Virus record (IMG/VR): IMGVR_UViG_2778261463_000017
Coordinates: 1-9,315 of that record
Reading direction: 5' to 3' (one strand)
Origin: a virus
Taxonomy: Duplodnaviria; Heunggongvirae; Uroviricota; Caudoviricetes
DNA: 9,315 nt
Below are positions 1-9,315 of the stretch, piece by piece; within the stretch, counting starts at the first letter, position 1, and every line of letters starts with the position of its first letter. Made by a program: the position numbers and the translations under genes. The notes under the pieces were generated by a model. That model was not told the DNA's origin. It made no database searches and saw nothing but the letters and a program-made list of their open reading frames with translations.

Positions 1-1242
1 ATGGCGAGAAAAACACACCCATTAACCACAGTGCAGATCAAAGCAGCCAGACCAGCGCAAAAGGAGTACACCCTGCAGGACGGCGGAGGGCTTTTTCTCC
101 TGGTCAAACCGTCTGGATCAAAACTCTGGAGATTTTCCTACTACCGACCATCGGACAAAAAAAGAATATTGCTGAGTTTTGGATCGCTTGAAGATGTTTC
201 CCTGGCTGATGCCAGAAAACGCCGTAGCGAGTACAGGACGTTAATCAGTGCCGGAACTGACCCGCAGGACCACGAGAGGCAAAAAAGAGAGACAGAGGCC
301 CGAAGACAAGGGAACACGTTCGAAAATGTGGCGGCGGCATGGTACCAGGTGAAAATCAGCCAGAATCTGGCCCCCAACACGATTAAAGACATCTGGCGTT
401 CGCTGGATAAATATGTATTCCCGTTCATCGGCAACACGCCAATAGATACCCTCACCGCCCGAAGGTTCGTTGAAGTGCTTACCCCCATCAAGGAGCGCGG
501 CAACCTGGAAACACTCAAGCGGGTTTTACAGCGCGTTAATGAGGTAATGGATTACGCCGCCAACAGTGGGCTGATTGATGCCAATCCGGCTATGAATGTG
601 CGTAAGGCGTTTCCCTCACCTGTAAAAAAACATATGCCAACAATCCGCCCCGAACAGCTGCCCGAGCTTATGCAGGCTTTATCAGTATCGGCAACAGAAC
701 GGCAGACCAGATTACTGATTGAATGGCAGTTACTGACCGTAACCCGTCCCGCCGAAGCGTCATCAACGCGGTGGGATGAAATCAACCTGGACGCGAAGCA
801 ATGGACGATACCTGCCGGACGCATGAAGATGCGCAGGGATCACGTTATCCCGCTTTCCGGTCAGGCTATGGCGGTGCTGGAGGCCATGAAACCAATCAGC
901 CACCACCGCAATTACGTTTTCCCAAGTCTGAAAGACCCACAGCAGCCGATGAACAGCCAGACAGCTAACGCAGCATTGCGGCGTATGGGATTCGCTGGCG
1001 TGCTGGTGTCTCATGGATTACGCGCCATATTCAGCACAGCAGCGAACGAGGAAGGATTCGAGCCGGACGTAATAGAGGCGGCACTTGCCCACGTCGACAC
1101 CAACGAAGTTAGACGGGCATACAACCGGAGCAACTACCTGGAAAAACGTGTAGTACTTATGCGCTGGTGGGGTGAATTTGTGGAAGCCGCAGCAACCGGA
1201 GTGACCATAGCCAGTGGTAAAAGGGGTATCCGTGCGGTGTAA
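1..1242 (+). CDS. int: P4-type tyrosine integrase (site-specific recombinase)
   Basis: 413-aa ORF starting MARKTHPLT...; the N-terminal block (KLWRFSYYRP...) and overall length are typical of P4/CP4-57-like integrases as I recall them. Full length from first base of window to TAA at 1240-1242. Confidence 0.9.
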   Translation: MARKTHPLTTVQIKAARPAQKEYTLQDGGGLFLLVKPSGSKLWRFSYYRPSDKKRILLSFGSLEDVSLADARKRRSEYRTLISAGTDPQDHERQKRETEARRQGNTFENVAAAWYQVKISQNLAPNTIKDIWRSLDKYVFPFIGNTPIDTLTARRFVEVLTPIKERGNLETLKRVLQRVNEVMDYAANSGLIDANPAMNVRKAFPSPVKKHMPTIRPEQLPELMQALSVSATERQTRLLIEWQLLTVTRPAEASSTRWDEINLDAKQWTIPAGRMKMRRDHVIPLSGQAMAVLEAMKPISHHRNYVFPSLKDPQQPMNSQTANAALRRMGFAGVLVSHGLRAIFSTAANEEGFEPDVIEAALAHVDTNEVRRAYNRSNYLEKRVVLMRWWGEFVEAAATGVTIASGKRGIRAV

Positions 1243-1767: not shown

Positions 1768-1974
1768 ATGGAAGTAATCAGAAAAATTCTTACCCGTCAG
1801 GAAGTAAAAAATATTCTGCGCATCAAGGCAGACAGTTCGCTACAGGACATGATCAACGCCGGAAAATTCCCGAAAGGCTTCAAAATCGGTCTGCGCCGTG
1901 TTGGCTGGTATGAAGATGAGGTGCAGGCCTGGTTGAAAGAACGCGAGGAAGAAGCGCGCGGAACGGCTGCGTAA
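1768..1974 (+). CDS. alpA: AlpA-family prophage transcriptional regulator (small HTH protein)
   Basis: 68-aa protein MEVIRKILTRQEVKNILRIKADSSLQDMINAGKFPKGFKIGLRRVGWYEDEVQAWL, a classic AlpA/phage-AlpA signature; GAGGT Shine-Dalgarno 8 nt upstream. Confidence 0.85.
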   Translation: MEVIRKILTRQEVKNILRIKADSSLQDMINAGKFPKGFKIGLRRVGWYEDEVQAWLKEREEEARGTAA

Positions 1975-2121
1975 TGGTGTGAGGTGTAACGCAATGAACA
2001 TAACAAAAAGCGCCCCGTTGCCGGAGCGCCCTTGTGAACAATTAACCTGCTGCGAAAAAAATGGATCAGTGCAGGGGAATTATATCAACCGTGTGACGAA
2101 GCGCCACAATTGCCGGATAAC

Positions 2122-2153
2122 AGGCAAAACAAAGGCCACCTGCTACGGTGGCC
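2122..2153 (-). terminator. candidate rho-independent terminator for the reverse-strand repressor gene
   Basis: Perfect 7-bp stem GGCCACC / GGTGGCC (2134-2140, 2147-2153) with a 6-nt loop; on the minus strand it is followed by TTTGTTTTG. Lies about 100 bp downstream of the stop at 2257. Confidence 0.4.
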
Positions 2154-2256
2154 ATTCGACACAAGCTACACGTTATCCCCAACGCAAGAGAGATGATTAC
2201 TATGCCGTGATTACATCCGGTTGGCAATGTGATCAGTGTGCTGGCTTGCTGGTGGG

Positions 2257-2562
2257 CTATTCCTGCTCTTTGGCTTTGCGCCGCTGGAGTTCTTCACGCG
2301 CAACGGCGACGAGTTGCCCGATCTCCTCGGCAGCTTTGACACCGATTTTTTCCACCTGCGCCAGTGCATCGAGCGAAGAAACCAGGGGATTTTCTCCTCT
2401 TCCTTCTGCCTGGCGGCGGGCGATCTCACCACGCATGGCGGTTACTATGAATCCGGCGTTGCTTTCGCCGTCCAGTTTTACGGATTCCATGCCATCAAAA
2501 GCATCATGTGGGATACGAATTGAAATCTGTTTTGATTTGTCGTTGATAGTGTTTTTTGCCAT
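2257..2562 (-). CDS. putative ribbon-helix-helix DNA-binding protein (candidate island repressor)
   Basis: 101 aa from MAKNTINDK...; the segment KQISIRIPHDAFDGMESVKL...NAGFIVTAMRGEIARR fits a beta-strand/helix/helix RHH pattern, followed by a charged helical tail. GGAGA Shine-Dalgarno 6 nt before this ATG. The longer 2257-2601 start is rejected because it has no spacing to the SD. Confidence 0.55.
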   Translation of the reverse strand: MAKNTINDKSKQISIRIPHDAFDGMESVKLDGESNAGFIVTAMRGEIARRQAEGRGENPLVSSLDALAQVEKIGVKAAEEIGQLVAVAREELQRRKAKEQE

Positions 2563-2584
2563 GTGCATTCTCCTAAACAAAATA

Positions 2585-2660
2585 TGTGATTCAGTATACA
2601 CAAAAAAGAATCACAAAAAATACTTGACCTGTGATTCAGTTGAATTTAATTTAAATCACA
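2585..2660. promoter_or_regulatory. divergent promoter/operator region between RHH gene and icd-like gene
   Basis: Two inverted-repeat pairs TGTGATTCAG...GAATCACA (2585-2615) and TGTGATTCAG...AAATCACA (2630-2660); a -35-like TTGACC (2624-2629) with TAATTT 17 bp downstream, overlapped by the second palindrome. Confidence 0.5.
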
Positions 2661-2685
2661 CCTCAGTAAGAGGATGTAAACGACA

Positions 2686-2719
2686 ACGCCCCGAACTGTT
2701 TGCGGCAGTAGCGGGGCGT
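2686..2719 (+). other. stable hairpin in the icd leader (candidate structured regulatory RNA element)
   Basis: 8-bp GC-rich stem ACGCCCCG (2686-2693) / CGGGGCGT (2712-2719) with an 18-nt loop containing an inner CTG/CAG stem; no T-run follows, so it is unlikely to be a terminator. Confidence 0.3.
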
Positions 2720-2755
2720 CTAACCACCAACGATAGCGAAAGTATCGAGGTAGCT

Positions 2756-2950
2756 ATGAGAAATCATACCACACACCCGCAAGGGCGGGACTCGCACAAC
2801 CTGAATAAATACATCTGGCGTTTTATCGCCCTGAGCACGGCACAACCGCGCGTGATTCACATCGTGGCCACCAGCGAACAGGAAGCGCGTCAGCAATCTC
2901 CTGATGGCTGCGTGATGGTATTGGCCTCCAGATTTCATCATCGCTGTTTG
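2756..2950 (+). CDS. Icd-like (host cell division inhibitor-like) small protein; 3' end undefined because the frame has no stop until 3988
   Basis: ATG at 2756 with GAGG Shine-Dalgarno; MRNHTTHPQGRDSHNLNKYIWRFIALSTAQPRVIHIVATSEQEARQQ resembles Icd-like proteins of P4-like elements as I remember them. Downstream of ~2950 the same frame becomes Cys/Arg/Ser/Phe-rich and un-protein-like, so the end given here is approximate, not a stop codon. Confidence 0.45.
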
Positions 2951-3132
2951 TTTTTTGTCTGTCTCTCCTCGGGGTATGGGGTTGTGCCGTTCCAGCGTAT
3001 GCGGGGCCGTTCACTGATGAAGCGCTCAAGCGGGAAATTATCGGATGGCGCGGGGGGCCGTACCCGTCGTTCCCGCCTCCGCTGGCGTACCACGCTGGCT
3101 TCGGTAATTTCCCCTGATTCGTTTATTTTCAT
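2938..3132 (-). CDS. small Arg/Pro-rich protein, paralogue A of a three-member mini-gene family
   Basis: 64 aa (MKINESGEITEASVVRQRRRERRVRPPAPSDNFPLERFISERPRIRW...); strong GGAGGT Shine-Dalgarno 8 nt upstream of ATG; shares the RRERR...PP.P...FPLE.FI..R.R pattern with the ORF at 3376-3546. Confidence 0.3.
   Translation of the reverse strand: MKINESGEITEASVVRQRRRERRVRPPAPSDNFPLERFISERPRIRWNGTTPYPEERQTKNKQR
3014..3033. repeat. dispersed direct repeat copy A (CTGATGAAGCGCTCAAGCGG)
   Basis: One of three copies of CTGATGAAN(3)CNNNAGCGG; 17/20 identical to copy C and 15/20 to copy B. Confidence 0.5.
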
Positions 3133-3175
3133 AAAGAGTTACCTCCGTGCTCATCTGCTCTGGCGTTTTCTGTTT

Positions 3176-3195
3176 CTGATGAAGACTTACAGCGG
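3176..3195. repeat. dispersed direct repeat copy B (CTGATGAAGACTTACAGCGG)
   Basis: 162 bp downstream of copy A (a multiple of 3); the most diverged copy, with a stop in the minus-strand reading. Confidence 0.45.
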
Positions 3196-3207
3196 TAGCG
3201 GCGTATC

Positions 3208-3324
3208 TTATTTTAAGATTTGGTTTAATTTCTCGTGTCTGGCTTTAATGACGGCGCGTAATAATATCTGTCGCTGCTTTGTGTTTACGTCCAGAACTGT
3301 GGGGGATAATATGGATTTGTTCAT
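3208..3324 (-). CDS. short ORF (38 aa), possibly a truncated paralogue B of the mini-gene family
   Basis: MNKSILSPTVLDVNTKQRQILLRAVIKARHEKLNQILK; AGGTGA Shine-Dalgarno 5 nt upstream of ATG; stops just before repeat copy B. Uses AT-rich codons (ATA, TTA), which weakens the call. Confidence 0.2.
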   Translation of the reverse strand: MNKSILSPTVLDVNTKQRQILLRAVIKARHEKLNQILK

Positions 3325-3375
3325 GGTGCTCACCTGTAATGCATTGCGTCGTGATGCCTCATATCACGGCGGCGG

Positions 3376-3546
3376 TTATCGTTTTGTTCGGATTCGTCCC
3401 CTGATGAAATCCTCAAGCGGAAAATGTTCAGGGCGAGGTAATTCAGGAGGGACAGGGTTATTACTCATGCGCTCACGTTCCCTTGCGGCGCGTGCAGCAT
3501 TCAGCTTTTGCAGGAGCACATCAAACGGCACCCCCTTATCATTCAT
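3376..3546 (-). CDS. small Arg/Pro-rich protein, paralogue C of the mini-gene family
   Basis: 56 aa (MNDKGVPFDVLLQKLNAARAARERERMSNNPVPPELPRPEHFPLEDFIRGRIRTKR); G-rich Shine-Dalgarno-like run before ATG; C-terminal half aligns with the ORF at 2938-3132. Confidence 0.3.
   Translation of the reverse strand: MNDKGVPFDVLLQKLNAARAARERERMSNNPVPPELPRPEHFPLEDFIRGRIRTKR
3401..3420. repeat. dispersed direct repeat copy C (CTGATGAAATCCTCAAGCGG)
   Basis: 225 bp downstream of copy B (a multiple of 3); differs from copy A at three adjacent positions only. Confidence 0.5.
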
Positions 3547-3700
3547 GGTCCCCCCTGTATATCCGTTGTTAACTGATGGTTACAGGTGCATTTTTCGCAC
3601 AAACTATTTAATCAACACATCCGACCACATTATCAGAGAGCCGGAATATACAGGGGCAATAATCCCGCATTTGCTGGCCTACGCACAGCTTACCGCTGAT

Positions 3701-3988
3701 ATGGCACTGAATGAGGCCAAAGCCATCCTGATTGCTGATTGTGAATATGGGGTTATGCGTGATGATCGTTTTAATGCCCTGAAACAGGAATTTGATGGCA
3801 CACCGGAAGATACAGATATTGCGCTGTTATGTGTTGCTGACATGGTAAAAGCTGCATGTTTTTTACTGGAAACCGCCGAACATTCAGGAACGGGTAGCGA
3901 TATTCTCAATATTGCGTCGGACTATGCTGAATATGTGGCAGAGGCGCGTTACAGAAGAAAATTCCAGGAGGTGGTTAGCCATGAATAA
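3701..3988 (+). CDS. hypothetical acidic protein, first gene of the replication operon (true start may be upstream)
   Basis: 95 aa (MALNEAKAILIADCEYGVMRDDRFNALKQEFDGTPEDTDIALLCVADMVKAACFLLETAEHSG...) with protein-like composition, unlike the upstream part of the same frame. No convincing Shine-Dalgarno at 3701; the stop overlaps the next gene's start. Confidence 0.5.
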   Translation: MALNEAKAILIADCEYGVMRDDRFNALKQEFDGTPEDTDIALLCVADMVKAACFLLETAEHSGTGSDILNIASDYAEYVAEARYRRKFQEVVSHE

Positions 3989-4185: not shown

Positions 4186-4485
4186 ATGAAAAAGAAAAAT
4201 TCTGGCTTTACTGCCAGCGGCCCCGCTCGGCCTGAAATCCGTCCCGGCGATATTTTCCGTGATAACTACGGCGGTACGGTAACGATTAAAGGCGTGGCAG
4301 AACGGCGCATCACTTACCGCCGTGATGGCTACGAATATGACTGCGTGATGCCTGTTTATCAGTTCCGGCGTGATTTTTCTCTGGTACAGGCAGCGCCCCG
4401 CAGTAAACCAACCAGCAGGGAGAAAGCACGCGCCAATATTCAGAAGATGAAAACCATGATTAACGGATTCAGGGATAAAAAATGA
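4186..4485 (+). CDS. hypothetical basic protein (prophage-associated small protein of unknown function)
   Basis: 99 aa (..GDIFRDNYGGTVTIKGVAERRITYRRDGYEYDCVMPVYQFRRDFSLV..); AGGAAA 8 nt upstream; stop overlaps the primase start (ATGA). Family identity not established. Confidence 0.55.
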   Translation: MKKKNSGFTASGPARPEIRPGDIFRDNYGGTVTIKGVAERRITYRRDGYEYDCVMPVYQFRRDFSLVQAAPRSKPTSREKARANIQKMKTMINGFRDKK

Positions 4486-5897
4486 AACTGGCACCGAACT
4501 TAAAAAAACAGCCACACAACAAAATGACCGAAGTCATTATTTTTGCAGGTAGTGATGCCTGGGCGCACGCAAAACAATGGCAGGAACAGGACGGGCGACT
4601 TGCTGGCGATAACGTCCCGCCAGTATGGCTGGGAGACAGTCAGCTTGACGAACTGGCAGACCTGAAAATTATCGACGATGGTCGCTATTGTGTCCGGCTG
4701 TACAAGGCAGGCCACATCAAGCCATCAAATATTAATGCCATCGGGCAAAAACTGGCGGCGGCAGGTGTACGGGATGCGAGTTATTACCCCGAGGGAATGC
4801 ACAGCCAGAAGCGGGAGGAATGGCGCGACTACCTGCAACGGATCCGCGAACAGGCAGAGCGCGGGGAAATACTTACTGATGAGCAATACAGCCAGCGAAA
4901 AACCACGCTACCCATGAGCATTGGATCTGCAGGATACGACACACAGCTTGATTATGTCGTTAAGGGCGTGATTCCGGCTAATTCATTGTGCAGCACATAC
5001 GGTGCGAGCGGTTCCTATAAATCATTCCTTGCGTGTTCCTGGGCGTGTCATGTTGCCACGGGGCGCCACTGGGGAGGCCGCAGGGTGGCGCATGGTTCGG
5101 TGATGTATGTTGTCGGTGAAGGTGGCATTGGTGTCCCCCGTCGTATCAAGGCATGGGAAATCGTTAATGATGAACGGGTGAAAAATCTGTACCTGGTAAA
5201 CCGCCCGATTTTTCCGGCAGCCCCGCTTGATGTTGATGAAATGGTTATCGCTTCCCGCCAGGTTGAACGGGAAACGGGTAAACCGGTACGCATGATTATT
5301 CTGGATACGCTGGCGCGTTGCTTTGGCGGTAATGATGAAAATGACGCGCGGGATATGGGGGCGTTTATCCGTGGATGTGACGACCTGAAACGACGCACAG
5401 GGGCCACGGTGCTGGTGGTCCACCATTCCGGCAAGGATGAAACAAAGGGGGCGCGTGGTTCCAGTGCATTTCGTGCATCTCTGGACGCTGAATACCGTAT
5501 TCGCCGAGAAGGTGCAGACAGTAAAGCCCTGGTTATATCCTGCACCAAAATGAAGGACGCGGAGGAACTGAAAGAGGCCGCCTACGATTTACGCGTGGTG
5601 GAGCTTTTTACCGACGCTGACGGGGAGTTAATCACGTCGCTGGTGGTGGTGGATAAGCCGCGCACTCCCGTTGAACTGGAGCGCATCGAGGAGGCAGGCA
5701 ACAAGACGGAAAACCATACCGCGCTATGGCAGTGCATCAGAACGCGAACAGCACACGGGGAGGCGTGCACTATCGCCCTTCTCCGCGACGATATGAAAAA
5801 GCTGGGGTATGAGATGAAGCACTTCCGGCGCTGGCTGTCCAAGCTGGAAAAAGACGGCGTGATTTGTGTCGATGGGGATGATGTTTACCCACTGTAA
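4482..5897 (+). CDS. replication initiator: primase-like N-terminal domain fused to a RecA-like AAA ATPase (PICI pri-rep type)
   Basis: 471 aa; Walker A GASGSYKS, Walker B-like MIILDTL, and an HHSGKDETKG block typical of RepA/DnaB-like AAA ATPases; AGGGA Shine-Dalgarno 6 nt upstream; iteron array immediately downstream. Confidence 0.85.
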   Translation: MKLAPNLKKQPHNKMTEVIIFAGSDAWAHAKQWQEQDGRLAGDNVPPVWLGDSQLDELADLKIIDDGRYCVRLYKAGHIKPSNINAIGQKLAAAGVRDASYYPEGMHSQKREEWRDYLQRIREQAERGEILTDEQYSQRKTTLPMSIGSAGYDTQLDYVVKGVIPANSLCSTYGASGSYKSFLACSWACHVATGRHWGGRRVAHGSVMYVVGEGGIGVPRRIKAWEIVNDERVKNLYLVNRPIFPAAPLDVDEMVIASRQVERETGKPVRMIILDTLARCFGGNDENDARDMGAFIRGCDDLKRRTGATVLVVHHSGKDETKGARGSSAFRASLDAEYRIRREGADSKALVISCTKMKDAEELKEAAYDLRVVELFTDADGELITSLVVVDKPRTPVELERIEEAGNKTENHTALWQCIRTRTAHGEACTIALLRDDMKKLGYEMKHFRRWLSKLEKDGVICVDGDDVYPL

Positions 5898-6098
5898 AAA
5901 GTGGGTAGTAAAAGTGGGGAGAGTGGGGAATTTAACAAAATTGAAACATAATTCCCCACTTTCCCACCTGTATACATCCAAAAAAGTGGGGAGTAAAAAA
6001 CGCAATGAAAAACAAAGCATTAGATTCACTCAAAAAACGAGGTGGGGAGCAAGTGGGGAATTTAAAAAGTGGGGAGCAAAAGTGGGGAGTGGTGGGGA
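5898..6098. repeat. iteron-type replication origin (GTGGGGA repeats flanking AT-rich spacers)
   Basis: About ten copies of GTGGG(G/T)A in direct orientation (5901, 5914, 5923, 5986, 6032, 6043, 6069, 6082, 6092) and two in inverted orientation (5952-5968), with an 18-bp unit AGTGGGGAATTTAA(C/A)AAA present twice and an A-rich segment 5993-6030. Confidence 0.7.
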
Positions 6099-6350
6099 AT
6101 GAACAGAAAAACCAGAGATAAGACAGCGCCAAAATATAAAGCGTTAGACATGACAGAGCACGCCTTAAAGGTGGCAATCAGAACGATAGACCGCCACGCC
6201 GGAGAAGGATACGCGAAAGCACATCCCGAACTGATAAGTGCATTCATGACCACAGCGGCGGCAAACTTTGCCACGCTGACAGAACGGGAGATTGCCGAAG
6301 CAGAACAGGTAACAACCATCAATGTTAAAACCGGAGAGCAGACAGCATGA
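6099..6350 (+). CDS. hypothetical small protein (start uncertain)
   Basis: 83 aa from MNRKTRDK...; stop overlaps the ssb start (ATGA). The putative start sits inside the last iteron, so the start is insecure. Confidence 0.45.
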   Translation: MNRKTRDKTAPKYKALDMTEHALKVAIRTIDRHAGEGYAKAHPELISAFMTTAAANFATLTEREIAEAEQVTTINVKTGEQTA

Positions 6351-6757
6351 CAGCACAGATAGCGGCTTACGGGCGGCTGGTGGACGACCCGCAGACAAAA
6401 CAGACCAGTAAGGGTACACCGATGACGCTGGCGCGTATGGCGGTATCTTTACCATGCGGCCAGGCACAGGACGGACAGGCGACGTTATGGTTATCGGTCA
6501 TCGCATTTGGCAAACAGGCCGACTTTCTGGCTAAACATCAAAAAGGCGACGTTGCCAGCGTATCCGGCACGATGCAGGTCAGCCAGTGGACCGGACAGAA
6601 CGGGGAAACGCGGCAGGGTTATCAGGTCATTGCAGACAGTGTAATCAGTGCCCGTGCTGCACGTCCTGGCGGGAGCAGACGCACAACCACAGGCACACAG
6701 GGGAATAAGCCACCAGCGGGAGGCGATGACCCTTACGGTGATGATATTCCGTTCTGA
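6347..6757 (+). CDS. ssb: single-stranded DNA-binding protein (SSB)
   Basis: 136 aa; OB-fold-like N-terminus (GRLVDDPQ..., WLSVIAFGKQADFL, QWTGQNGETRQGYQVIADSV), a Gly/Pro-rich linker and the acidic C-terminal tail ending DDIPF characteristic of bacterial/phage SSBs; GGAGAG Shine-Dalgarno. Confidence 0.8.
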   Translation: MTAQIAAYGRLVDDPQTKQTSKGTPMTLARMAVSLPCGQAQDGQATLWLSVIAFGKQADFLAKHQKGDVASVSGTMQVSQWTGQNGETRQGYQVIADSVISARAARPGGSRRTTTGTQGNKPPAGGDDPYGDDIPF

Positions 6758-6767
6758 GGGGGTGACG

Positions 6768-7040
6768 ATGGTACATGACCGGATAGCGGAGGAACTGGAG
6801 GCGAAAGGATTTTACCGGAGGGCGGCGGCGCGATGGGGTGAAGTTATGTGGCTGGTGAGCACTGACAAGGAGCGCGAACAGGTGGCAATGCGACGGCTGG
6901 AATGTTCCCGGAAGGCACAGAGGCCACCGGAGCCGCCGGATGATTTAGGCGCTCTGAAAAGGTCAGTTAATCGCACTGAAAAACAAATGGGGATAGCTGG
7001 TATTGGCAAAGCAATATGGCGCAACTACCCGCAGAAGTGA
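6768..7040 (+). CDS. PerC-family transcriptional regulator-like protein
   Basis: 90 aa from MVHDRIAEELEAKGFYRRAAARWGEVM...; this N-terminal motif resembles PerC/Pch-type prophage regulators as I recall them; GAGGGGG Shine-Dalgarno. The ORF-track start at 6648 overlaps ssb and is rejected. Confidence 0.55.
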   Translation: MVHDRIAEELEAKGFYRRAAARWGEVMWLVSTDKEREQVAMRRLECSRKAQRPPEPPDDLGALKRSVNRTEKQMGIAGIGKAIWRNYPQK

Positions 7041-7046
7041 GCACAC

Positions 7047-7071
7047 AGCCGGAGCAATCCGGCTTTTTTAC
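7047..7071 (+). terminator. rho-independent terminator ending the replication/regulatory operon
   Basis: Hairpin AGCCGGA-GCAA-TCCGGCT followed by TTTTTTA, 7 nt after the PerC-like stop. Confidence 0.65.
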
Positions 7072-7081
7072 GCCTAAAAAA

Positions 7082-7114
7082 AGCCCGATAAGGTCACAGG
7101 GGGCTTATCGGGCT
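7082..7114. terminator. second hairpin, possibly a bidirectional terminator
   Basis: 11-bp stem AGCCCGATAAG / CTTATCGGGCT flanked by AAAAAAA upstream and TTTTG downstream. Confidence 0.4.
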
Positions 7115-7196
7115 TTTGTATACGAGGTTTTTTATGGTGCACTGACACACATGATCGGGATAATCATTTCATAATTTGCAACGTAACTCAATATTG

Positions 7197-7224
7197 TTGC
7201 GCAAAATGCAATCATGATTATAAT
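7197..7224 (+). promoter_or_regulatory. candidate sigma70 promoter of the capsid operon
   Basis: TTGCGC (7197-7202), 16-bp spacer, consensus TATAAT (7219-7224); the -35 lies in a palindromic TTGCGCAA. Confidence 0.45.
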
Positions 7225-7228
7225 CAGG

Positions 7229-7246
7229 ACTGGATGAACATCCAGT
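7229..7246. promoter_or_regulatory. operator-like palindrome just downstream of the -10
   Basis: ACTGGATG-AA-CATCCAGT: 8-bp perfect inverted arms with a 2-nt centre, starting 5 bp after the TATAAT. Confidence 0.4.
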
Positions 7247-7280
7247 TATGATTTTTTAAGTCAAAGAGGAATTTCTGACT

Positions 7281-7487
7281 ATGGCAGAAGAGAAAAAAGG
7301 CGGGGTGACGGTCTACATAAGCCCCGACATCGTGGAGGCGCTCAAGGAACGCCACCAGCAGAATGTAAAAGCAGGCATTGCGGCAGGACTTGATCCGCTG
7401 GCGATGGTTGAGCCGTCAACAGGCTGGCAGGTGCGCACCTATTTACGTGCGGCGCTGGGTATCAATCAGGTTCACGGAGGTGAATAA
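7281..7487 (+). CDS. small hypothetical protein, first gene of the capsid operon
   Basis: 68 aa (MAEEKKGGVTVYISPDIVEALKERHQQNVKAGIAAGL...); AGAGGA Shine-Dalgarno; its TAA overlaps the capsid gene ATG by one base (TAATG). Confidence 0.5.
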   Translation: MAEEKKGGVTVYISPDIVEALKERHQQNVKAGIAAGLDPLAMVEPSTGWQVRTYLRAALGINQVHGGE

Positions 7488-8542
7488 TGACAGGCAAAGC
7501 AACGGCACTTACAACTAACCAGCTTTTCGCGTACCTGAATCGCGGGGATATTGCGGATTTTAAATTCAGCCCTCTGTTTACCACGCTGTTTTTCCCGAAC
7601 GTGGCGACCTTCAACACCCAAAACATCATGCTGGACACCCTGGACATTGAAGAGGTTACGATGTCAGCGTTCTGTTCGCCTATGGTGGGTAGTCAGGTCC
7701 AGCGCGATAAAGGGTACGAAACCAGCACGATTAAACCCGGCTACATGAAGCCAAAGCACGAAATCGATCCAACAAAGACCATCATGCGCATGGCTGGAGA
7801 AGATCCGGCACAGCTTAACGATCCAACTTACCGCCGTATGCGCCTGATTACTGGCAACATGCGCCGCCAGATAAACGCCATTAAGGCGCGCGTGGAATGG
7901 CTGGCGGTGAATGCGGTAACGACCGGAAAAAACATCATTGAGGGCGAAGGCATAGAACGCTATGAAATCGACTGGAAAATACCGGAAAACTGCATCATAC
8001 AGCAGGCCAGTGGTAAAAAATGGTCCGAGCAGGATAAAGACATGCACGACCCAATCTATGACATCGAGCTTTATGCTGATCAGGCAGGTTGCCCCGCCAA
8101 CGTCATGATTATGGGCGGTGAGGTATGGCGCACATTACGCAGCTTTAAAAAATTCCGTGAACTGTACGATCTTTCGCGTGGCTCAGAATCCGCCGCCGAG
8201 CTGGCCTGTAAAAACCTGGGCGAAGTGGTGAGCTTTAAAGGCTATCTTGGTGATCTGGGCCTTATCGTCTATTCCGGCAAATACACTGACAGCGACGGCA
8301 CCGAAAAATATTTCCTTGAGCCTGATTTGCTGGTCCTGGGTAACACCAACAATAAAGGGCTGGTGGCCTATGGTGCGATTATGGATCAGGAAGCGGTAAG
8401 AACGGGCGCAACGCAAAACATGTACTACCCGAAAAACTGGATTGAGGACGGCGATCCGGCGATTGAGTACGTGCAGACGCACAGCGCACCGCAGCCGGTA
8501 CCGGCAGATATTCGCAAATTTGTTACCGTCAAAATTGCTTAA
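7487..8542 (+). CDS. lambda gpE-like major capsid protein (HK97-fold MCP family)
   Basis: 351 aa; colinear similarity to lambda gpE as I recall it (KFxPLF..LFF near the N-terminus, PGYMKPKHE, RRMRLI..NMR, KWSEQDK, RSFK, GSESA, VSFKGYLGDLGLIVYSGKY, VLGNT, YPKNW..GDPA); strong GGAGGTG Shine-Dalgarno. Confidence 0.85.
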   Translation: MTGKATALTTNQLFAYLNRGDIADFKFSPLFTTLFFPNVATFNTQNIMLDTLDIEEVTMSAFCSPMVGSQVQRDKGYETSTIKPGYMKPKHEIDPTKTIMRMAGEDPAQLNDPTYRRMRLITGNMRRQINAIKARVEWLAVNAVTTGKNIIEGEGIERYEIDWKIPENCIIQQASGKKWSEQDKDMHDPIYDIELYADQAGCPANVMIMGGEVWRTLRSFKKFRELYDLSRGSESAAELACKNLGEVVSFKGYLGDLGLIVYSGKYTDSDGTEKYFLEPDLLVLGNTNNKGLVAYGAIMDQEAVRTGATQNMYYPKNWIEDGDPAIEYVQTHSAPQPVPADIRKFVTVKIA

Positions 8543-8553
8543 CGGGGGATTCT

Positions 8554-8889
8554 ATGGACGCTCCATACATTGAGTTATTTTCAGGCAGCCAGCAGGTATC
8601 CACGACGCTGGTACATTTTGCCGCTGATGCTGGCGTTATTCAGGAATTTACCCCGCTGATGCTGGCAGACAATGGCGAGTTTAAGGCGTGGGATGGTCAG
8701 GAATCTGGCAAAGCTGTTTATCTGACTTCGCACCCCGTGGACACGTCAAAGCAGAAATCAGCACAGTGTTACAAAACGGGGATATTCAATATTGCCGCCG
8801 TTAACTGGCCTGATAGCGTCGACACCGATGCGAAAAAATGCGCCGCCTTTGCGGGTTCCGGCGTATCCGTTCAGCCGCTGGCCCGATAA
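8554..8889 (+). CDS. lambda gpD-like head decoration protein
   Basis: 111 aa; PLMLADNGEFKAWDG, YKTGIF, VNWPDSVDTDAKKCAAFAGSGVSV parallel the gpD blocks PLMLD..AWDG, YKSGTF, WPEA..ETKKRTAFAGTAISIV. Confidence 0.7.
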   Translation: MDAPYIELFSGSQQVSTTLVHFAADAGVIQEFTPLMLADNGEFKAWDGQESGKAVYLTSHPVDTSKQKSAQCYKTGIFNIAAVNWPDSVDTDAKKCAAFAGSGVSVQPLAR

Positions 8890-8901
8890 GCAGGGGGAAC
8901 G

Positions 8902-9315
8902 ATGGCAACGAATGAAAGTATCATGACGCTACCGCTGGCGAGTAAATTTAAAGCCGAAGCGCGGGCAATGGCTGACAGAGGTTTATCAACCTACGAGGCC
9001 ATACACCGACTAAACAAACTGGAAGAACAGGACAAGCCGCGCGCTGATGCGATTATGGCGCTTCATGAATCTGACGACTACCAGCCGCTGTTACGTGCAA
9101 TGGCTAACGTGCCTTGTATCGATGTTGGTACGGCTAAAAGCATCCTTAGCATGACCATAGAGCAGGAACGCCCGAAGGTTGCACCAGAGCTTACTTCAGC
9201 CTTTGAAAACTTTATGGACATGCACAGCCCGAAAGCCGTATCAGCTGGCATGGCATACGATGGCAGAAACCCGGGCGATGACGGCGACATCGATCACATA
9301 CTGAAAACCATCTGA
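8902..9315 (+). CDS. hypothetical protein downstream of the decoration gene
   Basis: 137 aa with AGGGGGAA Shine-Dalgarno, ending TGA at the last bases of the window; composition is protein-like (charged, helical N-terminus). Function not recognisable. Confidence 0.55.
   Translation: MATNESIMTLPLASKFKAEARAMADRGLSTYEAIHRLNKLEEQDKPRADAIMALHESDDYQPLLRAMANVPCIDVGTAKSILSMTIEQERPKVAPELTSAFENFMDMHSPKAVSAGMAYDGRNPGDDGDIDHILKTI

Follow-up and report, generated by a model that had tools for sequence, protein, structure and literature searches.

Lambda-type coat and cement genes and a candidate scaffold gene form the late module of an EcCICFT073-family PICI

We analyzed a stretch of viral DNA of 9,315 nucleotides, referred to here as the window, which ends in a four-gene operon on the plus strand (7281-9315) with ORFs of 68, 351, 111 and 137 aa. 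We identified this operon, with near certainty, as the c1498-c1501 "late/adaptable" module of a cos-type PICI of the EcCICFT073 family. It encodes a coat protein of the lambda gpE family, the matching cement protein, a stand-alone homologue of the lambda Nu3 scaffold domain and a small protein restricted to satellites. The capsid-gene module has already been published as an EcCICFT073-type block, and it is experimentally dispensable for satellite transfer.

The genes that precede the operon are those of a satellite, as the first-pass annotation had proposed. An integrase gene comes first, followed by an AlpA gene, a DUF4222 gene, a RepA-type helicase gene and an SSB gene (Table 1); every assigned gene lies on the same strand, which is the arrangement expected of a PICI. 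Iterons (GTGGGGAG) 3' of the helicase gene indicate that the island has its own iteron-type replicon. The products of ssb and of the operon measure 136, 68, 351, 111 and 137 aa, exactly the lengths reported for c1497-c1501 (Fillol-Salom et al. 2018, supplement), and the window is collinear with this late zone of EcCICFT073. PICIs typically measure 10-15 kb, lie between host genes and have no lysis, tail, portal or large terminase genes; this size and content were seen in near-identical copies (about 11 kb) rather than in the window. Portal, protease, head-tail connector, TerS and TerL genes, the set that marks a cf-PICI, were found neither in the window nor in its complete relatives. Pfam and PHROG profile searches of the window also agreed with the earlier statement that no portal, protease or scaffold gene lies upstream of 7281. 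Excision and replication induced by a helper phage, together with high-frequency transfer, have been demonstrated in the literature for EcCICFT073 only.

Table 1. Features of the island and of its capsid operon (positions in the window)
Feature	Position	Strand	Remarks
Integrase	1-1242	+	ORF at one end of the window
AlpA-family regulator/excisionase	1768-1974	+	PF05930
Replication module	4186-6108	+	DUF4222 gene 4186-4485; RepA/AAA_25 helicase 4482-5897; ori iterons 5895-6108
SSB gene	6347-6757	+	136 aa, length as c1497; upstream of the capsid operon
PerC-family regulator gene	6768-7040	+	Immediately 5' of the capsid operon
Two terminator-like hairpins	7047-7118	+	3' of the PerC-family gene; set the capsid operon apart from upstream genes
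Conserved promoter/operator block (predicted)	7160-7269	+	Upstream of the 68-aa gene
TTGCA-N5-TGCAA-like sites	7167-7181 and 7197-7211	+	Within the promoter/operator block
-10 TATAAT	7219-7224	+	Within the promoter/operator block
Palindrome CTGGATGAACATCCAG	7230-7245	+	Within the promoter/operator block
RBS AAAGAGG	7263-7269	+	Within the promoter/operator block
68-aa protein, c1498 homologue	7281-7487	+	phrog_3255, E=8.7e-36; c1498 also 68 aa
Major capsid protein, lambda gpE family, c1499 homologue	7487-8542	+	351 aa, PF03864
Head decoration (cement) protein, lambda gpD/SHP family, c1500 homologue	8554-8889	+	PF02924
Stand-alone Nu3-type scaffold homologue, c1501 equivalent	8902-9315	+	phrog_1999; its stop is the window end

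Since the window stops with the last codon of the 137-aa gene, cos, rpp and the host flanks were read from near-identical copies. In these, the module is followed by a terminator, a lambda-type cos, sometimes rpp, a 93-aa gene and then host genes; the complete head-tail gene set that the first-pass annotation had named as counterevidence is absent from them. The cosN sequence is lambda-like (GGGCG[G/T]CGACCT) and lies 60-75 bp past the stop of the 137-aa gene. The best full-length match of the window island has 88% coverage and 96.9% identity. The closest full-length relative, L004, is an island of about 11 kb between tRNA-Pro/yejM and yejO, in which a search with a 12-nt seed found no att direct repeats. 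A second relative of about 11 kb, L001, lies between allE and allC in the allantoin locus; an RppC homologue (E=1.7e-32) follows cos in L001, and none was evident in L004. PGAP-style names ("major capsid protein," "head decoration protein," "phage head-tail connector protein") look phage-like and would fit an ordinary prophage fragment, with the capsid genes belonging to a lambdoid prophage, whether degraded or complete. However, three relatives reach host genes (allC, yejO) or IS remnants within about 1.3 kb 3' of the module, and in all three the PICI int/alpA/replication set precedes the capsid genes. Portal, protease, terminase large subunit and tail genes are missing, and the gene order is unlike that of phages. 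The flanks of these three rule out a prophage fragment for the relatives examined, and we give this explanation next to no chance.

It is nearly certain that the capsid genes form one operon, with a conserved predicted promoter of its own and terminators at its bounds. Of the two terminator-like hairpins upstream, the first (7047-7064) has a T-run behind it, and the second, a GC hairpin at 7084-7118, was read from the sequence; the same hairpin type recurs 3' of the 137-aa gene in relatives (family D1). The block in front of the 68-aa gene is nearly invariant between PICI lineages whose coat proteins are just 63-68% identical, and it had no match in the phage collection. From its motifs, it probably serves as promoter and operator. 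We considered the palindrome in this block as a LexA box and rejected it; the CTG-N10-CAG spacing is present, but the conserved T and A of CTGT/ACAG are not, and the palindrome is missing in one lineage. The stop codon of the 68-aa ORF overlaps the start codon of the coat gene (TAATG, 7485-7489), which bears out the coupling noted at first pass.

The identities proposed earlier for the coat and decoration genes are well founded. Residues 26-349 of the 351-aa protein matched Phage_cap_E (PF03864) with 169.6 bits (cut-off, 22.9), and the lambda gpE structure 7vi9 was retrieved with E=1.3e-80. PDB entry 3BQW (E=3.5e-230) differs from the window coat at only 15 of 351 residues. Because this solved protein, counted among the experimentally determined HK97-type structures, is 95.7% identical to the window coat, the HK97 fold of the latter is settled, and the lack of such a fold, the other counterevidence named at first pass, does not apply. 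We take 3BQW to be c1499 itself; its deposition title reads "putative prophage capsid protein." The conservation of individual sites is still that of a coat protein, and the 351-aa protein is a putative builder of icosahedral capsids. The 111-aa protein scored 63.7 bits against HDPD (PF02924; cut-off, 29.1) and matched PDB entries 1td0 (E=1e-12) and 1c5e, lambda gpD (E=3.8e-9). The order is E then D, as first reported, whereas lambda and one lambdoid phage have C/Nu3, D, E.

The capsid genes had also been described as lacking visible assembly partners, a view that the 137-aa protein contradicts. This protein falls into phrog_1999 (E=3.7e-62) and also matches the C terminus of phrog_53. The Nu3 region of lambda matched the same family with E=4e-26, and a lambdoid gpC did so with its C-terminal 153 aa, over the full length (E=1e-59). 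With all three in phrog_1999, a scaffold relative therefore sits 3' of the coat and decoration genes. By BLASTP, the 137-aa protein is 36% identical to gpC/Nu3 over 83 aa (E=3e-10), and an hmmsearch of its family profile against lambda head proteins gave gpC/Nu3 as the sole match. A search of 1.84 billion representatives brought up only 13 relatives. AF2 predicts an all-helical protein (pLDDT 66), and a fold search of this model against PDB and BFVD gave no significant match. The gene is free-standing and not nested in frame within the 3' part of a protease gene; no S49 protease is present in the island. These comparisons identify the 137-aa protein as a homologue of the C-terminal scaffold domain of gpC/Nu3, an assignment that is new here. 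From this homology and the all-helical model, we predict a role as an assembly chaperone inside procapsids, from which it would later be removed. The PGAP name "phage head-tail connector protein" was rejected, as no profile backs it; it seems to stem from the old "preconnector" label of gpC/Nu3.

The 68-aa protein is found in satellites alone, and its gene is coupled in translation to that of the coat. Its homologues occur in Escherichia, Salmonella and Edwardsiella only, and tblastn against 50,697 phage records found no match. Pfam, NCBIfam and PADLOC searches were likewise negative, as was a comparison of its profile with the head proteins of lambda and lambdoid phages. The AF2 model (pLDDT 77) consists of a beta-hairpin and two helices and had no significant fold match in PDB or BFVD. 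A ribbon-helix-helix fold might be guessed from this beta-alpha-alpha pattern, although no tool agreed.

Islands of this type have been studied experimentally. Deletion of c1499 or c1500 left both transfer by the resident helper and interference with lambda unchanged, and the DNA packaged with lambda from EcCICFT073 was phage-sized (PMC6092414). Induction of CFT073 gave no PICI-monomer band. The whole c1498-c1501 block has been swapped for cas9 or melA, and the island was still packaged by phi80. In the stated view of the field, full-size heads carry these islands as concatemers. In the published sections consulted, the tested islands were marked c1501::tetA or c1499::cat, and capsid size was reported from such islands only. 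Both markers fall within the capsid module, a point that is new here; therefore, as far as those sections go, an intact module may not have been tested.

These data weigh on the possibility that the satellite coat, the Nu3-like scaffold, or both force helper components into small heads that fit one or two satellite genomes of about 11 kb and exclude the helper genome, in the manner of Ccm and CpmB. A coat homologue combined with a scaffold that resembles, in its C-terminal part, the coat-binding gpC/Nu3 tail of the helper would parallel the SaPI systems, and the position of the markers inside the module, in the sections consulted, leaves room for such an effect. In Pasteurella, PmCI172 has small capsids together with a coat homologue (PMC6092414). 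The first-pass annotation had mentioned a proposed capsid-redirecting coat homologue in Gram-negative PICIs; this fits PmCI172, where it was put forward as a suggestion, but no other island. Coat genes as such are present in 21 of the 29 reference Gram-negative PICIs (Tommasini et al. 2023, PMC10111431). Phage-sized DNA and the missing monomer band argue against size redirection, as do the continued packaging of cargo-enlarged islands that lack the module and the field's view of concatemers in full-size heads. Moreover, Rpp alone explains both interference and preferential packaging. The building or remodelling of small capsids that had been proposed for this module finds no support in the phage-sized DNA, the silent deletions and the replaceable block, and we consider size redirection quite unlikely.

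Another possibility is that coat and scaffold act as dominant-negative subunits that poison capsid assembly in lambdoid phages that are competitors or do not serve as helpers. Capsid assembly is a common point at which satellites block their helpers, and the scaffold homologue and helper gpC/Nu3 could be rivals for the interior of the coat. However, when the EcCICFT073 genes after ori were expressed singly from pBAD, only c1503 (rpp) cut lambda or phi80 plaques, and deletion of c1503 brought plaquing back almost fully. The c1499 and c1500 deletions gave no relief, PADLOC returned no matches, and poisoning needs no cement protein. The chance that the module serves interference or defence appears slim.

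The module is both widespread and well preserved. At least 80% of it is present in 590 of 5,426 complete E. coli genomes (about one in nine), and in four islands compared all four ORFs are intact and of the same length. Among these islands, dN/dS was 0.12 for the 68-aa gene, 0.14 for the coat gene, 0.13 for the decoration gene, 0.31 for the scaffold gene and 0.17 for the replicase. Purifying selection on the module is thus as strong as on the replicase, at a dN/dS of about 0.14 (scaffold gene, 0.31), a result that is new here and that, with the intact ORFs, speaks for functional proteins. We read the genomic contexts of coat homologues from the contigs that encode them. Those examined, 51-95% identical to the window coat and from Escherichia, Salmonella and Serratia, were all in int-AlpA-primase islands, always with E before D.

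In a neighbor-joining tree, the satellite coat proteins form one clade, sister to lambda-like phages; this separate clade is new here. Its members are 49-72% identical to each other and at most 47% identical to any sequenced phage, and at 49% identity the clade goes deeper than the lambda-like phages sampled (55%). Of 336 ungapped columns in the coat alignment, 59 are invariant in satellite and phage clades alike, and per-site conservation correlates between the two (Spearman 0.44, p=1e-17). These comparisons suggest that the coat genes are an ancient satellite-borne lineage. Recent capture from a helper was rejected because no coat among the 50,697 phage records exceeds 47% identity to that of the window; for two divergent satellite lineages, the best phage identity is 42-44% at most.

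The same data bear on whether the genes are a decaying relic that no longer has a function, left behind by a phage head cluster that was once captured or by an ancestor that formed capsids. The deletions without phenotype and the replaceable block would be expected of a relic, and PICI late zones are said to be dynamic, with genes captured and lost in cycles (PMC10111431). The third gene also differs between lineages; other satellite lineages with E and D lack the Nu3-like gene or have an AlpA-domain gene in its place. A relic is nevertheless hard to reconcile with dN/dS values of 0.12-0.15 (apart from the scaffold gene) that equal or undercut that of the essential replicase, with ORFs intact and equally long in the 590 genomes and across genera, with a deep clade that has kept coat-like site conservation and with a highly conserved promoter. 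We therefore hold decay to be improbable.

The explanation that we favor overall, at somewhat less than even confidence, joins the EcCICFT073-type identity of the module to a shell-building mechanism. Coat, Nu3-type scaffold and cement would form a lambda-type shell set. Because the module has no portal, protease or terminase, assembly would use the portal/protease core of the helper, and the helper terminase, retargeted in islands that have Rpp, would fill the heads. Satellite DNA would thereby obtain some or all of its heads from the module whenever helper coat is scarce, late, interrupted or ill-matched, for example, when the satellite resides inside the helper's own gene E. For satellites embedded in this way a "backup copy" role has been proposed (PMC10111431), and we found one such satellite in L009. 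Under the laboratory conditions used so far, the module would be redundant with helper genes. Satellite proteins would, by the same reasoning, enter DNA-filled heads.

The intact genes under selection, the old satellite-borne lineage and the coat-like site conservation speak for this explanation. In lambda, gpD does not bind the gpE lattice until the latter has expanded, and the action of Nu3 is confined to assembling procapsids. The retention of a matched cement and scaffold thus makes sense mainly if the coat forms real shells. Against shell building stand the deletions without effect, the replaceable block, the phage-sized DNA packaged with lambda and the finding that only c1503 of the singly expressed genes inhibited lambda. 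The identity between satellite and helper coats is only 42-47%, so that the satellite coat may not co-assemble with helper coats or dock on a helper portal; the lineages with E and D in which the Nu3-like gene is lost or replaced also count against it. That the three proteins are a working lambda-type shell-building set is accordingly a tentative proposal, which we would back in about one case of three. A related possibility is that the island is a "half capsid-forming" PICI that makes its own shells, maybe smaller, on a helper portal/protease core with some natural helpers. Such shells could have been missed because every tested derivative was marked in c1499 or c1501 or was without the block. 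We consider this unlikely; if true, the family would be an evolutionary intermediate from classical PICIs to cf-PICIs.

Strong purifying selection has kept the module in the satellites of several enterobacterial genera. Experiments nevertheless showed no phenotype, and in engineered islands it is routinely removed as an "adaptable" slot for cargo. Recognizing coat, cement and scaffold together turns this into a concrete, testable question, namely, whether such satellites ever produce heads of their own; it was with islands carrying a marker in the module that the published negative results were obtained. Should the module have no part in transfer, its conservation would indicate an unrecognized selective role of satellite capsid proteins.

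Compared with known systems, the window island is closest to EcCICFT073, which it resembles in gene order, product lengths and island architecture, with cos immediately 3' of the module in its relatives. It differs as a mosaic relative, with another integrase and Bro-zone region, and its relatives occupy other sites (tRNA-Pro/yejM and the allantoin locus). The EcCICFT073 system is given as 96% identical, and the phage-sized DNA reported for it came with markers inside the module. With lambda, the island shares homologous coat (E=1e-80), cement and scaffold-domain proteins, and in its relatives, as in lambda, cos adjoins a Nu1-derived gene. Unlike lambda (Nu3, D, E, with the scaffold nested in the protease gene), it has the order E, D, Nu3-like with a free-standing scaffold gene, and it is without portal, S49 protease, terminase, W, FI and FII. 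Its coat is just 42-47% identical, and it has the additional 68-aa gene, which has no phage counterpart.

Among satellites, cf-PICIs such as EcCIEDL933 have related int/alpA/rep genes and likewise encode their own capsid proteins. However, they carry coat, protease, portal, connectors, HNH, TerS and TerL, whereas islands of the window type have coat, cement and scaffold only and rely on cos, plus Rpp in relatives. The Ccm protein of SaPIbov5 is also a satellite-encoded coat homologue, and CpmB of SaPI1 is a satellite scaffold that resembles the coat-binding end of the helper scaffold; neither has a sequence relationship to the window module. Small capsids have been demonstrated for SaPIs but not seen for EcCICFT073. 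Finally, 11capE (PMC10111431) is an island of the same type with its own E-type coat gene; it lies inside helper late genes, as does the satellite in L009, whereas the relatives of the window occupy chromosomal sites.

Upstream of the capsid genes, the window encodes an integrase, AlpA, a DUF4222 gene, a RepA/AAA_25 helicase, SSB, and a PerC-family gene; genes for a portal, a protease, or a terminase are absent there. The gene for the RepA-family helicase is immediately followed by about eight GTGGGGAG-type iterons, the expected origin of replication of a phage-inducible chromosomal island (PICI). The AR_0085 island, 99.7% identical across the module interval, sits between allE and allC and carries, past the 137-aa gene, only a 146-aa protein, an RppC homologue (PDB 6hlk, E=1.7e-32), and a 93-aa gene. 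The B771 island, the best full-length match to the window, adjoins tRNA-Pro/yejM and ends before yejO, and EcCIDi14 has the same layout. In all three islands, the stop codon of the 137-aa gene is followed by a terminator hairpin and, 60 to 75 bp later, by a lambda-type cosN, GGGCG(G/T)CGACCT with lambda-like flanks. Complete copies run from the 137-aa gene through a terminator, cosN, and a few small genes into host genes, with no head-tail set. Judged by these relatives, the element is a cos-type PICI, as opposed to a capsid-forming PICI, and a prophage fragment is excluded; the first-pass annotation was right to call it a satellite. In the supplementary gene list of Fillol-Salom et al. 2018, the product lengths of c1497 to c1501 of the reference island EcCICFT073 exactly equal those of the window.

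Features of the window and of related loci, with EcCICFT073 counterparts (supplementary gene list of Fillol-Salom et al. 2018) and dN/dS against EcCIDi14
Feature	Coordinates	Strand	Basis	EcCICFT073	dN/dS
669-aa ORF	1979-3988
Motif-sharing ORF	2938-3132	-
Motif-sharing ORF	3376-3546	-
Iterons	5895-6108
PerC-family regulator	6768-7040
Putative promoter/operator block	7160-7269
68-aa ORF	7281-7487	+	ORF call	c1498, 68 aa	0.12
Coat (gpE-type), 351 aa	7487-8542	+	Pfam Phage_cap_E, PHROG major head protein	c1499, capsid, 351 aa	0.14
Decoration (gpD-type), 111 aa	8554-8889	+	Pfam HDPD, PHROG head decoration	c1500, decoration, 111 aa	0.13
Nu3-type scaffold homologue, 137 aa	8902-9315	+	phrog_1999	c1501, 137 aa	0.31
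SSB				c1497, ssb, 136 aa
Replicase (comparison)					0.17
cosN-flanked segment, L001 (AR_0085 locus)	16035-16870
cosN-flanked segment, L004 (B771 locus)	13950-14612
PICI within lambda-like prophage, L009	2511-14073
PICI within P2-like prophage, L012	3292-13000

In the AR_0085 and B771 loci, the segment after the 137-aa gene is flanked by two oppositely oriented cosN-like sites; it encodes the RppC homologue in AR_0085, whereas in the B771 island it is AT-rich and no rpp was evident. The PerC-family regulator (132.7 bits) is immediately upstream of the capsid operon, with terminators between them; for PerC-like genes of PICIs in other islands, an effect on LEE expression has been reported (PMC11773190). 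Several small ORFs on the minus strand overlap the 669-aa GTG-initiated ORF, which lacks a Pfam match and probably does not represent a gene; relatives have YlcI/YnfO and Icd-like genes in this region. Two minus-strand ORFs share an FPLE(R/D)FI motif.

The capsid operon (7281-9315) consists of four closely packed plus-strand ORFs, and the stop codon of the 68-aa gene overlaps the coat gene start (TAATG). The 351-aa protein matched Phage_cap_E at 169.6 bits (cut-off, 22.9), and the 111-aa protein matched HDPD at 63.7 bits (cut-off, 29.1). PHROG assignments agreed with Pfam for both (major head protein, E=2.6e-108; head decoration, E=3e-27). The coat differs at 15 of 351 residues from PDB 3BQW ("putative capsid protein of prophage"), which the literature uses as an experimentally determined HK97-type structure; the next solved relative is lambda gpE (E=1.3e-80). 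This 95.7% identity settles the HK97-like fold without modelling. The reversed order, E then D, pointed out in the first-pass annotation is real, because lambda and one lambdoid phage have C/Nu3, D, E.

The same annotation saw no assembly partner and missed a scaffold relative. The 137-aa protein is a member of phrog_1999 (E=3.7e-62) and also touches the C-terminal end of phrog_53, a head-maturation-protease family. Reciprocally, the lambda Nu3 region matched phrog_1999 at E=4e-26, and the final 153 residues of one lambdoid gpC matched it over the full length at E=1e-59. BLASTP aligned the 137-aa protein with gpC/Nu3 (36% identity, 83 residues, E=3e-10). The same lambdoid gpC/Nu3 tail was its sole tblastn match in 50,697 phage records, and among all lambda and lambdoid head proteins the family profile matched gpC/Nu3 only. 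The family is very narrow (13 matches among 1.84 billion representatives), and its predicted structure is all-helical at low confidence (pLDDT 66). A literature search found no paper linking PICIs with Nu3 or a scaffold. Many NCBI-annotated copies are named "phage head-tail connector protein," an identity supported by no profile; the name probably goes back to "head-tail preconnector," an older label for lambda gpC/Nu3. Judged by sequence, the module is a predicted set of coat, cement, free-standing Nu3-type scaffold, and a 68-aa orphan with no phage counterpart found.

That the module is a relic is disfavored by the selection data. Between the window and EcCIDi14 (dS of about 0.25), dN/dS was low, and every ORF was intact with no difference in length. 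At a coverage of at least 80%, the module was found in 590 of 5,426 complete E. coli genomes. Coat homologues with 68% (Salmonella), 63% and 55% (E. coli), 53 to 54% (Serratia), and 51% (Salmonella) identity all sit in islands of the int-AlpA-primase type, and in each of them E precedes D. The best phage-collection match was 47% identical for the window coat and 42 to 44% for two divergent satellite lineages. In a neighbor-joining tree without bootstrap, satellite coats grouped in a single clade whose sister group was the coats of lambda-like phages. Together, the clade and the low phage identity argue for an old acquisition kept within satellites, as opposed to recent capture from helpers. 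Site-wise conservation correlated between satellite and phage coats (Spearman, 0.44), 59 positions were invariant in both, and indels were nearly absent, as would be expected of an assembly-competent coat protein. The 68-aa gene is present in all three closest lineages and the Nu3-like gene in two, the Salmonella 68% lineage lacking it; the 51 to 55% lineages have an AlpA-domain gene in its place. The constant core is E plus D. In the 55% lineage, one predicted protein of 463 aa (P0103) combines Phage_cap_E and HDPD domains and looks like a fusion, or a read-through, of the neighboring E and D genes.

The operon is bounded by terminators, and a putative promoter/operator block of its own precedes the 68-aa gene. 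This block holds two TTGCA-N5-TGCAA-like sites 30 bp apart and a perfect TATAAT, the -10 being directly followed by the palindrome CTGGATGAACATCCAG. The block is nearly invariant across PICI lineages whose coats are only 63 to 68% identical, is more conserved than coding DNA, and had no match in the phage collection.

Two PICIs lie within prophages. One has its own E-D pair and interrupts gene E of a lambda-like prophage, leaving fragments of 91 and 254 aa; its coat shares 55% identity with the window's and only 42% with the disrupted helper coat. Helper-embedded islands of this configuration have been published. The other, also with an E-D pair, lies among the clustered tail genes of a P2-like prophage. 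Because P2-type phages use a different coat family from the lambda type, this coat and cement cannot simply mix with the capsid proteins of the surrounding prophage.

Size redirection, proposed in the first-pass annotation as a small-capsid role, is possible but disfavored by published packaged-DNA sizes: in Fillol-Salom et al. 2018 (PMC6092414), EcCICFT073, the closest relative examined, was packaged with lambda as phage-sized DNA. The same paper reports unchanged lambda interference and transfer upon deletion of c1499 or c1500. Single-gene expression and deletion data likewise disfavor interference as the module's function, and Rpp (c1503) is responsible for interference and preferential packaging. 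The two marked islands described there were c1501::tetA, marked in the scaffold homologue, and c1499::cat. Both markers lie inside the module; therefore, as far as the published text shows, capsid size and transfer were assessed with the module already interrupted. Synthetic islands with cas9 or melA in place of c1498 to c1501 are still packaged by phi80. Tommasini et al. (PMC10111431) state that 21 of the 29 Gram-negative PICIs in their reference set carry a major capsid gene and that transfer does not need it; where islands are embedded in helper late genes, they suggest that it acts as a backup copy.

The gene identities, fold, context, and conservation of the module are established, as is its dispensability for transfer by three helpers. 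It is established lambda biology that proteins of the gpD type bind the gpE lattice only once it has expanded and that scaffolds of the Nu3 type work only within procapsids under assembly. That a matched cement protein, and in this lineage also a scaffold, has been retained over the long term would thus be best explained if the satellite coat forms real, DNA-filled shells. Since the island has no portal, protease, or terminase, such shells would have to nucleate on a helper portal/protease core, and helper terminase would fill them at the adjacent cos site. We tentatively suggest that the module could provide heads as an auxiliary or a backup, one that would be redundant in the usual laboratory pairings. 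The first-pass observation was real, and its interpretation only partly right. The narrow question that remains is why satellites conserve a coat-cement-scaffold set found dispensable in experiments. The coat structure of this well-studied satellite family has long been solved and, given the published capsid genes, deletions, and packaging data, the capsid-gene module is an already documented part of it.
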